A DNA stretch of 4,771 nucleotides from IMG/VR virus record IMGVR_UViG_2585427761_000018. One strand, given 5' to 3'. The position numbers and the translations under genes were made by a program. This DNA comes from a virus (taxonomy: Duplodnaviria; Heunggongvirae; Uroviricota; Caudoviricetes). Positions 1 to 4,771 of this stretch are shown here, piece after piece; the first letter of the stretch is position 1, and the number at the start of each line of letters is the position of its first letter. The notes beneath the pieces are model-generated. The model was not told the origin of the DNA. It made no database searches and worked only from the letters and a program-made list of their open reading frames with translations.

Positions 1-272
1 CCAGCCGATAATGCTGCGACCGGTTTTCCGTCTTTCAGTGCCGGGGCGCAATTTCCTTTTTCGTGCACATGAAAACCATGAATGCCTTCAGACAGAGAGT
101 GAAGGGCTGGTGTGAACAGCAGACCGTAGGGGGTCTCCTGAATGGTTATTTTTCCAATGCTGACTTCTTTTCCGTCAGCACTGACAAGGTTCATTGGGAC
201 TTCCTGTTCTGCTGCGTATCCGCATGATGCTGCTGTCAGCATGGCAATGGCAGCAATGATTTTACATTTCAT
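1..272 (-). CDS. sodC: Periplasmic Cu/Zn superoxide dismutase, N-terminal 90 codons; gene continues beyond the left edge of the window
   Basis: Hand translation of the minus strand from the ATG at 272..270: MKCKIIAAIAMLTAASCGYAAEQEVPMNLVSADGKEVSIGKITIQETPYGLLFTPALHSLSEGIHGFHVHEKGNCAPALKDGKPVAALSAG. Hydrophobic N-terminal signal peptide, then the GFHVHE-KG-C motif and overall pattern of bacterial SodC (E. coli SodC has ...GFHIHAKGSC..., recalled from memory). SD-like GAGGG lies 4 nt upstream of the ATG on the minus strand (complement of about 277..281). Not in the supplied ORF track, presumably because it has no stop inside the window. Confidence 0.88.
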   Translation of the reverse strand, partial: MKCKIIAAIAMLTAASCGYAAEQEVPMNLVSADGKEVSIGKITIQETPYGLLFTPALHSLSEGIHGFHVHEKGNCAPALKDGKPVAALSA

Positions 273-405: not shown

Positions 406-3400
406 ATGGGTAAAGGTGGCGGCAGGGCGCACACGCCGGTTGAGGCAAAGGACAATCTTAAGTCCACGCAGATGATGAGCGTGATTGATGCCATTGGTGA
501 AGGGCCGATTGAAGGTCCGGTGAAGGGGCTGCAGAGTATCCTGGTGAACAAAACCCCGCTGACGGACACGGACGGCAATCCTGTGATACATGGTGTGACA
601 GCGGTCTGGCGCGCCGGGGAGCAGGAGCAGACACCACTGGAAGGCTTTGAGTCCTCCGGAGCTGAAACCGGACTGGGCGTGGAAGTGACGAAGGCAAAAC
701 CGGTGACGCGCACCATTACATCCGCGAACATTGACCGCCTGCGGGTCACCTTCGGGGTGCAGTCACTGTTGGAGACCACCTCAAAGGGCGACCGTAATCC
801 CTCTTCTGTCCGACTGCTGATTCAGTTGCAGCGTAACGGTAACTGGGTGACGGAAAAGGATGTCACCATTAACGGCAAGACCACCTCACAGTACCTGGCG
901 TCGGTGATTCTGGAGAATCTGCCTGAGCGGCCCTTTAACATCCGGATGGTCCGGGAGACAGCGGACAGCACCCCGGACCAGCTGCAGAATAAGACGCTCT
1001 GGTCGTCATACACCGAAATCATCGATGTGAAACAGTGCTACCCGAACACGGCGATTGTGGGGCTGCAGGTGGATGCGGAGCAGTTTGGCGGTCAGCAGAT
1101 GACGGTGAACTACCATATCCGAGGTCGCATCATCCAGGTGCCGTCAAACTATGACCCGGAAAAACGCACTTACAGCGGCATCTGGGACGGCAGCCTGAAA
1201 CCGGCATACAGCAACAACCCGGCCTGGTGCCTGTGGGACATGCTGACTCACCCGCGCTACGGCATGGGAAAACGTCTGGGGGCGGCAGACGTGGACAAAT
1301 GGGCGCTGTATGCCATCGGGCAGTACTGCGACCAGACGGTCCCGGATGGTTTCGGGGGCACAGAGCCGCGGATGACCTTTAATGCGTACCTGTCACAACA
1401 GCGTAAGGCGTGGGACGTTCTCAGTGATTTCTGCTCGGCGATGCGCTGTATGCCGGTATGGAACGGCCAGACGCTGACGTTCGTTCAGGACCGCCCGTCG
1501 GATGTGGTGTGGCCGTACACCAACTGCGATGTGGTGGTGGATGATAACGGCGTGGGGTTTCGCTACAGCTTCAGCGCCCTGAAGGACCGCCACACGGCGG
1601 TGGAGGTGAATTACACCGACCCGCAGAACGGCTGGCAGACCTCCACGGAACTGGTGGAAGACCCGGAAGCCATACTGCGCTACGGGCGCAACCTGCTGAA
1701 GATGGATGCGTTCGGTTGCACCAGTCGCGGTCAGGCCCACCGTGCCGGGCTGTGGGTGATAAAGACCGGACTGCTGGAAACGCAGACGGTGGATTTCACG
1801 CTCGGGTCTCAGGGGCTGCGTCACACACCCGGTGACATCATTGAAATCTGTGATAACGACTATGCCGGGACCCTGACCGGCGGACGTGTCCTGTCCATTG
1901 ATGCTGCCACCCGCACCCTGACGCTGGACCGTGAAGTGACACTTCCGGAGACCGGTGCCGCCACGGTGAACCTGATTAACGGCAGCGGTAAGCCGGTGAG
2001 TGTGGACATCACCGAACACCCCGCGCCGGACCGGATACAGGTCAGTACCCTGCCTGATGGTGTGGAGACATACGGGGTGTGGGGACTCTCCCTGCCGTCA
2101 CTGCGCCGTCGCCTGTTCCGCTGTGTCTCCGTCCGGGAAAACACGGACGGCACCTTTGCCATCACGGCGGTGCAGCACGTACCGGAAAAAGAAGCCATCG
2201 TGGATAACGGTGCCCGCTTTGAGCCGCAGTCAGGTTCCCTGAACAGCGTCATCCCACCGGCAGTGCAGCACCTGACGGTGGAGGTGAGCGCAGCTGACGG
2301 CCAGTATCTGGCGCAGGCGAAATGGGACACGCCGCGGGTGGTGAAGGGTGTGCGCTTCAGTCTGCGCCTGACCAGTGGTAAGGGAACGGATGCCAGACTG
2401 GTGACCACCGCCATCACCGCAGACACGGAGCACCGTTTCAGCGGCCTGCCGCTCGGGGAATACACCCTGACGGTGCGGGCGATAAACAGCTATGGCCAGC
2501 AGGGTGAACCTGCCACCACCACCTTCCGGATTGCCGCACCGGCAGCACCGTCGCGGATTGAGCTGACGCCGGGCTATTTTCAGATAACCGCCACGCCGCA
2601 TCTTGCCGTTTATGACCCGACGGTACAGTTTGAGTTCTGGTTCTCGGAAAAGCGGATTGCGGATATCAGGCAGGTTGAAACCGCAGCCCGCTATCTTGGC
2701 TCGGCGCTGTACTGGATAGCTGCCAGTATCAATATCAAACCGGGCCATGATTATTATTTTTATATCCGCAGTGTGAATACTGTTGGCAAATCGGCATTTG
2801 TGGAGGCTGTTGGCCAGCCGAGTGATGATGCATCCGGCTATCTGGATTTTTTCAAAGGAGAGATAGGGAAAACCCATCTGGCTCAGGAGTTGTGGACGCA
2901 GATTGATAACGGTCAGCTTGCGCCTGATCTGGCTGAAATCAGGACGTCCATTACGAATGTCAGCAATGAAATCACGCAGACCGTCAATAAAAAACTGGAA
3001 AATCAGAGCGCGGCAATCCAGCAGATACAGAAAGTTCAGGTTGATACAAATAATAACCTGAACAGCATGTGGGCCGTGAAACTGCAGCAGATGAAGGACG
3101 GACGCCTTTATATTGCGGGTATCGGAGCCGGTATTGAGAATACGCCAGCAGGTATGCAGAGTCAGGTGCTTCTGGCTGCTGACCGGATTGCGATGATTAA
3201 TCCTGCGAATGGCAACACAAAGCCGATGTTTGTTGGTCAGGGCGATCAGATATTCATGAACGAAGTGTTCCTGAAATACCTGACGGCTCCCACCATTACC
3301 AGTGGCGGTAATCCTCCGGCATTTTCCCTGACACCGGACGGGCGGCTGACGGCGAAAAATGCCGATATCAGCGGTAACGTGAATGCGAACTCCGGGACGC

Positions 3401-3879
3401 TCAACAACGTCACGATTAACGAAAACTGTCGGGTTCTGGGAAAACTGTCCGCCAACCAGATTGAAGGCGATCTCGTTAAAACAGTGGGCAAAGCTTTCCC
3501 CCGGGACTCCCGTGCACCGGAGCGGTGGCCATCAGGGACCATTACCGTCAGGGTTTATGACGATCAGCCGTTTGACCGGCAAATTGTTATTCCGGCGGTG
3601 GCATTCAGTGGCGCTAAGCATGAGAGAGAGCATACTGATATTTACTCCTCATGCCGTCTGATAGTGCGGAAAAACGGTGCTGAAATTTATAACCGTACCG
3701 CGCTGGATAATACGCTGATTTACAGTGGTGTTATTGATATGCCTGCCGGTCACGGTCACATGACGCTGGAGTTTTCGGTGTCAGCATGGCTGGTAAATAA
3801 CTGGTATCCCACAGCAAGTATCAGCGATTTGCTGGTTGTGGTGATGAAGAAAGCCACCGCAGGCATCAGTATCAGCTGA
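406..3879 (+). CDS. J: Lambdoid phage host-specificity protein J (tail tip / central tail fibre), 1157 aa
   Basis: Single uninterrupted ORF. N-terminus [38 protein letters not shown]... and long internal stretches (e.g. [141 protein letters not shown]) closely match lambda J as I recall it. Size is close to lambda J (1132 aa). Followed by lom and stf as in lambda. Confidence 0.96.
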
Positions 3880-3897
3880 ATTTTATAACCCATATAC

Positions 3898-3922
3898 GGG
3901 CGCCAGAAATGGCGCCTTTTTT
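3898..3922 (+). terminator. Putative rho-independent terminator between J and lom
   Basis: GGCGCC (3899..3904) pairs with GGCGCC (3911..3916) around a 6-nt loop AGAAAT, followed immediately by TTTTTT (3917..3922). It starts 19 nt after the J stop codon. Confidence 0.6.
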
Positions 3923-3935
3923 ATTGCAGAAAAGC

Positions 3936-3941
3936 GAGAGG
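3936..3941 (+). promoter_or_regulatory. Ribosome-binding site of lom (GAGAGG, 5-nt spacer to ATG at 3947)
   Basis: Shine-Dalgarno-like motif at the right distance from the lom start codon. Confidence 0.6.
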
Positions 3942-3946
3942 TAATT

Positions 3947-4546
3947 ATGCGTAGACTTTATGCCGCCATTTTGTCCGCAGCCATTTGTCTGGCCGTATCC
4001 GGTGCGCCTGCATGGGCGTCTGAACATCAGTCCACGCTGAGCGCGGGGTATCTTCATGTCTCGACGAACGTTCCTGGCAGCGATGATCTTAACGGGATTA
4101 ACGTGAAATACCGTTATGAGTTTACGGACACACTGGGGATGGTGACGTCGTTCAGCTATGCAGGAGACAAGAATCGCCAGCTTACCCGTTACAGCGATAC
4201 CCGCTGGCATGAAGATTCCGTTCGTAACCGCTGGTTCAGCGTAATGGCGGGGCCGTCTGTACGCGTGAATGAATGGTTCAGCGCGTATGCGATGGCGGGT
4301 GTGGCTTACAGCCGTGTGTCGACTTTCTCCGGGGATTATCTCCGCGTAACTGACAACAAGGGGAAAACGCACGACGTGCTGACCGGAAGTGATGACGGTC
4401 GCCACAGCAATACCTCTCTGGCGTTGGGGGCTGGCGTGCAGTTTAACCCGACCGAATCCGTGGCCATTGATATTGCTTATGAAGGCTCCGGCAGTGGTGA
4501 CTGGCGCACTGACGGTTTCATCGTGGGTGTCGGTTATAAGTTCTGA
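3947..4546 (+). CDS. lom: Lom-like outer-membrane beta-barrel protein (Ail/Lom/OmpX/PagC/Rck family), 199 aa; lysogenic-conversion cargo gene
   Basis: N-terminal signal peptide [24 protein letters not shown] with AWA|S cleavage motif. Internal [12 protein letters not shown] and SVMAGP...[12 protein letters not shown] motifs. C-terminus [26 protein letters not shown] ends in an aromatic residue as expected for an OMP barrel, and matches lambda Lom from memory. Sits between J and stf as in lambda. Confidence 0.92.
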
Positions 4547-4572
4547 TTAGCCAGGTAACACAGTGTTATGAC

Positions 4573-4599
4573 AGCCCGCCGGTTCAGGCGGGCTTTTTT
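4573..4599 (+). terminator. Putative rho-independent terminator downstream of lom
   Basis: Perfect 7-bp GC-rich stem GCCCGCC (4574..4580) / GGCGGGC (4587..4593), extendable by an A4573-T4594 pair, with loop GGTTCA, followed by TTTTTT (4594..4599). It lies 27 nt after the lom stop. Confidence 0.75.
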
Positions 4600-4610
4600 G
4601 TGGGGTGAAT

Positions 4611-4771
4611 ATGGCAGTAAAGATTTCAGGTGTACTGAAAGACGGCACAGGAAAACCGGTAAAGAACTGCACCATTCAACTGAAAGCCAGACGGACCAGC
4701 AGCACGGTGGTGGTGAACACGGTGGCCTCTGAAAATCCGGATGAAGCCGGTCGTTACAGCATGGACGTTGA
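4611..4771 (+). CDS. stf: Side tail fibre protein, N-terminal 53 codons; gene continues beyond the right edge of the window
   Basis: ATG at 4611 preceded by G-rich SD-like GGGGTG. Translation MAVKISGVLKDGTGKPVKNCTIQLKARRTSSTVVVNTVASENPDEAGRYSMDV is near-identical to the N-terminus of lambda Stf (orf-401) as recalled, and the gene sits immediately after lom as in lambda. Not in the supplied ORF track because it has no stop inside the window. Confidence 0.85.
   Translation, partial: MAVKISGVLKDGTGKPVKNCTIQLKARRTSSTVVVNTVASENPDEAGRYSMDV

Follow-up and report, generated by a model that had tools for sequence, protein, structure and literature searches.

A terminator-bracketed lom gene in the late tail operon of a lambda-like prophage and its likely placement behind a J-closing hairpin

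The window, the whole 4,771-nucleotide stretch of viral DNA analyzed here, carries a lom gene between the tail genes J and stf. We think it likely that this lom is a "moron," an accessory gene carried by a lambda-like prophage of the E. coli type, present as a unit of ~673 bp behind a terminator that already closed J. Comparison of the window with its relatives supports a description of lom as a terminator-bracketed accessory gene with its own Shine-Dalgarno (SD) sequence inside the late tail operon. The gene, its position between J and stf, its bracketing by hairpins with T-runs, and its accessory status are already known from lambda and relatives; terminator-bounded accessory genes inside a Q-antiterminated late operon are textbook lambda biology. 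Thousands of E. coli prophages carry annotated genes that are 97 to 98% identical to the lom allele of the window.

Gene content of the window and boundaries of the lom unit

The window holds four genes, and its best whole-window match, among prophages in complete E. coli genomes, is 97.3% identical. The 5′ part of a sodC-like prophage gene lies on the minus strand (positions 272 to 3). On the plus strand follow J (406 to 3879), a tail tip/host specificity gene of 1157 amino acids (aa) with six J-specific Pfam domains (matches include Ig_J, FNIII-A_GpJ, Phage-tail_3, Phage_Tail_Tip, and Ig_GpJ_C); lom (3947 to 4546), which encodes the 199-aa precursor of an Ail/Lom-family 8-stranded outer-membrane β-barrel and matches PF06316 over its full length; and the 5′ end of the side tail fibre gene stf (4611 to 4771; Pfam phage_tail_N, E = 3e-27), which runs off the window. 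This order matches J-lom-stf of lambda. From the end of J to the start of stf (3800 to 4771), many lambdoid E. coli phages, Stx-converting ones among them, are 95 to 98% identical in DNA to the window, and Stx2a_1447 (AP012536), VT1-Sakai, and CP-1639, all within this range, have the same hairpins around lom. Records of E. coli lambdoid prophages name the gene product Lom or "Ail/Lom family outer membrane beta-barrel protein." An antisense open reading frame (3872 to 4405, 177 aa) has no Pfam match and was set aside as a chance ORF. Searched against Rfam with a limit of E ≤ 1, the full window gave only two sub-threshold chance matches; the Trp_leader match at 4519 to 4601 just mirrors the terminator.

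Two plus-strand hairpins, each followed by T6, resemble intrinsic terminators. Hairpin 1 (3898 to 3922) begins 18 nt past the J stop codon, and its T-run ends 24 nt before the lom ATG. Hairpin 2 (4573 to 4599) lies directly 5′ of the stf ribosome-binding site. An SD sequence of lom's own, GAGAGGT (3936 to 3942), is read from the sequence, as an earlier sequence-only reading of this DNA had stated; its GAGAGG (3936 to 3941) stands 5 nt ahead of the ATG, and GAGAGGT is invariant or nearly so across all lom loci, lambda included.

The boundaries of the lom unit emerged from relatives that lack the gene. We scanned IMG/VR with a pattern consisting of the conserved TATAACCC motif, 3 to 8 nt, and then the hairpin, and obtained 122 occurrences. 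In 105 of these the sequence continues into TTTTTTATTGCAGAAAAGCGAGAGGTAATTATG, the lom leader, while 15 are lom-less, their T-run leading straight into TGTGGAGTGAATATGGCAGTACAG, which holds the stf ribosome-binding site and start. The order at a lom-less junction is thus the J C terminus, the TATAACCC motif, the hairpin, and then TTTTTTATT-TGTGGAGTGAATATG-stf, and the stf homologue that directly follows hairpin 1 matches phage_tail_N with E = 3.5e-54. In one such locus, L204, J shares 83% identity with the window J over its whole length and hardly differs from it in the C-terminal ~440 residues, and the spacer from the J stop codon to the stf ATG measures 58 nt, versus 731 nt in the window, a difference of 673 bp. 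When a lom-less junction was aligned with lom-carrying named phages, two aligned pieces were obtained (1077 nt spanned versus 401 nt of query) that bracket ~676 extra bp, annotated Lom.

The segment that is present or absent (3926 to 4598, plus strand, ~673 bp) consists of a leader of 21 nt that contains the SD, the lom gene with its conserved 3′ untranslated region (UTR), and terminator 2. Both indel junctions fall at T-runs (5′ junction, ...GCC TTTTTT ATT / GCAGAAAAG...; 3′ junction, ...GGGC TTTTT / TGTGGGG...; the slash marks the boundary), within which the boundaries can slide by 2 to 3 nt. Because hairpin 1 is unchanged in lom-less relatives, where it stands directly before stf, we regard the upstream terminator as a feature of the J/stf backbone; to judge from these junction sequences, hairpin 1 and the TATAACCC motif both appear to belong to the backbone junction. 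The proposal that the cassette is bounded by both terminators did not hold up, as hairpin 1 is present in the lom-less relatives (15 of the 122 matches). For the lambda-type J-lom hairpin, a search for lom-less occurrences gave 18 matches, every one followed by lom. As a side observation, when GTDB genomes were scanned for distant Lom loci, most of the matches were lambda DNA contamination and new contexts were few.

Two features of morons are found here: lom is present or absent between collinear genes (15 lom-less loci), and its own downstream factor-independent terminator, hairpin 2, lies inside the indel. Lambdoid morons of the HK97 gene 15 type are likewise extra genes, present or absent amid conserved late genes, with a downstream intrinsic terminator of their own. 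Whereas the textbook moron brings a promoter and a deviant GC content, the lom insert has 21 nt 5′ of its ATG and a GC content like that of its neighbors (lom, 0.53 to 0.58; 3′ third of J, 0.47 to 0.55; 5′ part of J, 0.56 to 0.65; start of stf, 0.51), so that the deviant GC usual, though not obligatory, in morons is not seen. HK97 gene 15-type morons are a class reported to be prophage expressed (Juhala et al. 2000, reviewed in PMC3594210).

The indel may be an insertion or a deletion, and the T-run microhomology would allow either. We weighed the possibility that terminator-lom-terminator was the ancestral unit, that lom-less phages are secondary deletions by recombination between GC-stem/T6 junctions, and that hairpin 1 is what the cassette left behind. 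If lom-less forms did arise by deletion between the T-runs, the cassette might at one time have included hairpin 1. In favor of deletion, the two junctions share the ending ...GCC/GGC TTTTTT and so offer microhomology; a single hairpin variant (GGGCGCC...GGCGCC) is shared by all 15 lom-less loci; and lom-carrying junctions are far commoner (105 versus 15). However, the lom-less loci are not one clone, since their J ends are of three sequence types and their motif-to-hairpin spacers of four, and they have their own stf allele group. Moreover, hairpin 1 variants partly track the J-end type while the leader past the T-run is invariant, which places hairpin 1 with the J module. Secondary deletion is a tentative alternative that we consider less probable than a lom unit placed behind a pre-existing J-closing terminator.

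The two hairpins as predicted intrinsic terminators

The two hairpins with T-runs that the sequence-only reading had placed around lom were both borne out by folding energy, a terminator scan, and a d'Aubenton-Carafa-type score (d-score), and the terminator prediction proposed there found both to be stable. The stem-loop of hairpin 1 (3898 to 3917) has 8 bp and a GAAA loop and folds with −15.7 kcal/mol (z = −4.1), its T-run extending to 3922. The stem-loop of hairpin 2 (4573 to 4594) has 8 bp and a 6-nt loop and folds with −18.2 kcal/mol (z = −4.0), its T-run extending to 4599; z values were computed against dinucleotide shuffles. The terminator scan found 9 sites in the window, versus 4.0 ± 1.8 in shuffles, and ranked hairpins 1 and 2 as the top two. 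The d-score, computed at every position on both strands of the window, was positive only at the two hairpins (+34 to +43 over both; +34 to +42 for hairpin 1 and +34 to +43 for hairpin 2), and the next best value was −15. Each combines a GC-rich stem, a short loop, and an immediate 3′ U-tract, as intrinsic terminators do. Both are one-directional and point with the late operon, no T-run following either of them on the minus strand.

Lambda lom (J-lom-stf region, NC_001416, 18903 to 19650) shares the position between J and stf and also the layout: a hairpin with T-run, ~25 nt, a GAGAGGT SD, lom, a 64-nt 3′ UTR, a hairpin with T6, and the stf ribosome-binding site. The lambda 3′ UTR, terminator 2, and stf start are nearly identical in DNA to those of the window, and the lambda lom-stf terminator has a d-score of +32. 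In contrast, the lambda J-lom hairpin is of unrelated sequence, with 6 bp including a G·U pair, an interrupted T-run, and a d-score of ~+9 (+34 to +42 in the window), and the lambda J C terminus also differs from that of the window J.

Covariation was assessed for hairpin 1 in 19 distinct versions from 190 related loci. Standard pairs filled 96% of pair cells, versus 34 to 60% when the 3′ arm was slid by 1 to 3 columns. Compensatory double changes were found in 3 of the 8 pairs (G-C to A-U, C-G to U-A, and A-U to U-A), none of 500 shuffles reached the covariation score, and in one variant the central CCAGAAATGG is inverted to CCATTTCTGG with the stem kept. The stem of hairpin 1 is maintained by selection. 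Hairpin 2 hardly varies in any of the three lom allele types. The few variants mostly alter the loop or are wobble-preserving transitions; no compensatory pairs occur among them, and hairpin 2 is uninformative for covariation. A perfect T6 right after each stem is kept in nearly all loci. Both hairpins look like real terminators, and terminating activity is predicted for both.

We consider it unlikely that the hairpins are mainly 3′-end, processing, or stability elements of the late transcript, keeping 3′ exonucleases away from the J and lom segments. Stems selected for pairing would suit such a role, as would established lambda biology, in which Q-modified polymerase would read through both during the sole phase of strong operon transcription; yet the conserved T6 is specific to intrinsic termination, and a stability hairpin would not need it. 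A hairpin could serve in both roles.

Transcription of lom in lytic growth and lysogeny

Q-modified RNA polymerase of lambda is terminator resistant. During lytic growth, Q-modified polymerase would thus ignore both terminators, and a common transcript would cover J, lom, and stf, with lom translated by way of its own SD. In the repressed prophage, hairpin 1 would stop unmodified polymerase and so shield lom and stf from stray J transcription, while hairpin 2 would stop polymerase and shield stf-tfa from any transcription of lom. Expression of lom in a lysogen would then depend on a weak, nonconsensus start at or upstream of the J stop codon, with transcription running through or from hairpin 1. 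A start at that place follows from the lack of room for a promoter in the segment: the indel holds only 21 nt 5′ of the lom ATG, which cannot accommodate both a promoter and an SD-bearing leader. Lysogenic expression of lom is probably low. If it occurs by read-through, expression of this allele is expected to be below that of lambda lom, because the lambda counterpart of hairpin 1 is far weaker.

Promoter searches were negative. A sigma-70 consensus scan gave no match on the plus strand near lom. For three loci (the window, lambda, and one of the 207-aa type), the 600 nt ahead of lom were scanned with a position weight matrix (PWM); no score rose above background, and no site was positionally conserved among the three. 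A search for a PhoP box, as in pagC-like control, yielded only 3-mismatch matches at chance frequency; the window thus has no PhoP-box-like site. A weak or activator-dependent promoter straddling the junction may be compatible with the consensus and PWM scans.

Few lambda genes are reported to be expressed in lysogens; lom is one of them and is counted as a moron (PMC7067206, PMC3594210). One array study did not detect lambda lom expression and notes that little is known about the lom promoter (PMC2147009). Our literature search found no mapped lom promoter or start site. The microRNA-size RNA 24B_1, described as "downstream of lom" in phage phi24B (PMC4426718), belongs to another genomic context and is not relevant here; its sequence is absent from the analogous lambda region, according to its authors (PMC4426718).

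A candidate start was nonetheless inspected. A conserved TTATAACCC motif (3883 to 3891, plus strand), between the J stop codon and hairpin 1, holds TATAAC (3884 to 3889). In every 199-aa-type locus it precedes the hairpin by 7 to 9 nt, its place being taken by TTATTAACCC in the 207-aa type, and it also occurs in lom-less loci, though there the search pattern required it. Given the fixed distance of 7 to 9 nt, a start at TTATAACCC may be possible. One reading built on this motif makes lom an autonomous insulated cassette whose promoter overlaps the J stop codon, with transcription starting at ~3896 and hairpin 1 becoming a 5′-terminal mRNA stem-loop that may stabilize the transcript, like the ompA 5′ stem-loop. 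The spacing, kept across different J ends, would put the start 0 to 2 nt before the stem, and lom is reported to be expressed in lambda lysogens (PMC7067206). However, the −7 T, which is nearly invariant in promoters, is missing from TATAAC; the closest −35 matches 3 of 6 positions at 18-nt spacing, and the promoter scans give no match there. Only a subset of variants carries an extended −10 TG, the 207-aa type reads TATTAA instead, and nothing comparable is seen in lambda. The motif and hairpin also stand before stf in lom-less phages, and the transcript would meet a strong hairpin with U6 at about +2 to +27. We find an autonomous promoter at this site doubtful. The sequence-only reading had identified no lom promoter and had called TATAAC a weak −10 without a convincing −35, and with this our results agree; the lom promoter overlapping the end of J and the terminator that it had envisaged was not detected, and autonomous expression of lom, given the 21-nt leader and no promoter found within 600 nt upstream, gained no support.

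A related proposal is that lom is promoterless behind a selected terminator and that hairpin 1 sets its lysogenic expression, either as a leak valve for read-through or as the stabilizing 5′ stem-loop of a transcript started at TATAAC. We would give this little credence at present; if true, a lysogenic-conversion gene would have recruited a terminator of the backbone as its control element.

Variation in the Lom protein

Lom matches PF06316 with E = 1.9e-118 and 393.7 bits (cut-off, 23), residues 1 to 199 aligning with profile positions 1 to 199. Sequence matches in the PDB were lambda Lom (9wso_C, 6e-48) and OmpX and Ail (E of ~1e-16 to 1e-18), and the OmpX, Ail, and lambda Lom chains align end to end with the window Lom. 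An AF2 model built from a 19-sequence alignment was of low confidence (pLDDT 59) and was used, with the OmpX and Ail alignments, for strand order; it has 8 main strands, as expected, and its top Foldseek matches are Ail (3QRA/3QRC) and OmpX (1QJ9), at E of ~5e-9. A signal peptide of about residues 1 to 24 ends in AWA, with a mature start at SE... (read from the sequence), and the C terminus (...VGVGYKF) ends in an aromatic residue, the β-signal for BAM. The protein thus has the profile match, the eight-stranded antiparallel barrel, and the Sec signal peptide with C-terminal aromatic residue of the Ail/Lom family. Ail of Yersinia, OmpX of E. coli, and PagC and Rck of Salmonella have this 8-stranded barrel family in common with Lom (PF06316/PF13505); their genes are chromosomal or plasmid-borne with regulated promoters of their own, and the E2 and E3 loops of Lom are much longer than theirs. 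The literature on adhesion or serum resistance, as cited in PMC3594210, concerns lambda Lom only. One change, W160L, is unique to the window allele.

The window Lom (199 aa) and lambda Lom (206 aa) are 47% identical overall, and the signal peptide and loops E1 to E3 differ between them. Identity is 67% in the membrane strands, 38% in E1, 22% in E2, 25% in E3, 33% in the periplasmic turns, and 42% in the signal peptide, whereas E4 (residues 182 to 188, SGDWRTD) is 100% identical. The most diverged parts are therefore three of the four loops. The topology and alignment check (AF2, OmpX, and Ail) maps the divergence to E1 to E3 and also to the periplasmic turns. The earlier claims that the signal peptide differs from that of lambda and that the exposed loops have diverged more than the strands were upheld, the latter for E1 to E3 but not for E4.

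dN/dS was computed by region for the 199-aa allele group of the window (100 unique coding sequences), giving 0.14 for the membrane strands, 0.41 for E1, 0.25 for E2, 0.09 for E3, 0.01 for E4, and 0.32 for the signal peptide. E3, the longest loop, is conserved within this allele group. Synonymous divergence in E1 and E2 is about twice that in the rest of lom, variants of the signal peptide, E1, and E2 occur as discrete blocks in differing combinations, and E4 and the last strand are invariant in all 120 unique alleles of the three types. Because synonymous divergence is raised as well, E1 and E2 look like imported segments, and their pattern points to recombinational import plus relaxed constraint rather than diversifying selection.

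The sequence-only reading had called the divergence consistent with diversifying selection on the exposed loops. We judge such (positive) selection, from immune or phage pressure, improbable: E1 to E3 are indeed only 22 to 38% identical to lambda, versus 67% for the strands, and E1 and E2, with their discrete alleles, have the highest dN/dS of the loops within the 199-aa type (0.41 and 0.25), but no region exceeds a dN/dS of 1 (range, 0.01 to 0.41), E3 and E4 stand at 0.09 and 0.01, with E4 invariant in 120 unique alleles, the doubled synonymous divergence of E1 and E2 indicates recombinational import, and the periplasmic turns and signal peptide diverge from lambda as well.

The C terminus behaves differently. 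Sliding DNA identity to lambda rises at ~4465 from 0.3 to 0.7 (about 50%) to 0.87 to 1.0 and does not fall again before the window ends. The resulting block of ~92% identity (4465 to 4771, plus strand) spans the 3′ end of lom, the 3′ UTR, terminator 2, and the 5′ end of stf, of which it includes the first 160 nt; the 64-nt lom 3′ UTR equals that of lambda except for the hairpin loop and one stem position. The last 19 residues of Lom, which include the E4 loop (SGDWRTD), are 100% identical to lambda. All differences in the last 19 codons are synonymous, as are nearly all in the last 27 (pN, 0.03, and pS, 0.38, versus 0.40 and 0.65 upstream). The C-terminal identity is, on these comparisons, attributable to a shared mosaic block together with strong purifying selection. 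As the sequence-only reading had it, the C-terminal strands are identical to those of lambda; because the identical stretch includes a loop and lies in a mosaic block, it is no evidence on strands versus loops.

What the window adds to the known picture of lom is detail. The upstream terminator emerges as a backbone element with covariation support and the lom unit as one without room for a promoter, and the indel boundaries sharpen a small question, namely, where lom transcription starts in lysogens. Lom varies in modules shuffled by recombination, and its fourth loop is invariant. Beyond a tidy annotation the significance is small, but a search for a conserved ligand or partner would start at the invariant E4 loop.

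Accessory genes and mosaicism around J

The beginning of the window carries the 5′ part of a sodC-like gene (positions 3 to 272, minus strand), encoding a prophage-borne Cu/Zn superoxide dismutase and divergent from the J gene (406 to 3879). The Pfam Sod_Cu model matched this segment at 28.5 bits, slightly below the cutoff of 28.9, because the window edge truncates the gene; in the closest E. coli genomes, the corresponding gene is annotated as sodC. The two genes are separated by an AT-rich intergenic spacer of 133 nt (273 to 405; ~43 to 47% GC). The sodC-like gene is a second accessory gene within the tail region. Inside J, GC content falls sharply near position 2600, from ~0.62 to 0.65 to ~0.46 to 0.50, consistent with a mosaic junction in J between a conserved N-terminal part and a distal or receptor-binding part that is exchangeable.

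Variation in the elements flanking lom

Upstream of lom (3947 to 4546, plus strand), the terminator-like hairpin at 3898 to 3922 (hairpin 1, the J terminator) varied among related database loci. In two of these loci (L016 and L170), the central 10 nt are inverted, with CCAGAAATGG replaced by CCATTTCTGG and the stem retained; the palindrome seems to have undergone a small internal inversion. Two other lom loci (L009 and L165) have unrelated DNA joined upstream of lom; one join falls within the lom leader (…CTTAC|GAAAAGCGAGAGG) and the second within hairpin 1, in its left arm. Both joins probably represent rearrangements or IS junctions by which the J terminator was lost.

The lom 3′UTR contains a perfect 13-nt palindrome, TAACACAGTGTTA (4556 to 4568), which is the same in lambda and in almost all lom loci, across three allele types. 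The lambda lom 3′UTR matches that of the window everywhere except in the hairpin loop and at one stem position, although neighboring synonymous sites do differ from lambda.

Length and residue variation in Lom

A group of genome contigs matching the window Lom (L091 to L104 and L107 to L112) consists of short, low-coverage contigs from assemblies labeled Neobacillus, Kitasatospora, Pseudomonas, Shewanella, Bradyrhizobium, and others. Their identity to the window Lom is ~47%, the value expected for the lambda allele, and they look like lambda control-DNA contamination in those assemblies.

At residue 160 (4424 to 4426), in strand 6 (context SLAWGAG), the window encodes Leu (TTG), whereas all 119 other unique alleles, including that of lambda, encode Trp (TGG). 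Either Leu160 is a rare variant or the sequence is in error at this position, which is conserved across every other allele examined. PDB sequence records list a solved structure that includes the lambda "Outer membrane protein lom" (9wso, chain C), for which a literature search found no publication; this entry would be the proper template for Lom loop mapping.

Two direct repeats lie inside lom. The longer, TGGTTCAGCG, is a perfect 10-bp repeat with copies 42 bp apart (4232 to 4241 and 4274 to 4283); the shorter, ATGGCGGG, spans 8 bp, with copies 48 bp apart (4244 to 4251 and 4292 to 4299). Lom variants in the databases fit this spacing exactly, with an in-frame 14-amino-acid deletion (185 amino acids), a 14-amino-acid duplication (213 amino acids), and a 16-amino-acid deletion (183 amino acids) all matching the repeats. 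One 185-amino-acid variant, from Shigella dysenteriae, is present on 70 contigs. Since every such length variant loses or doubles one barrel strand, these data suggest slippage or recombination that inactivates lom.
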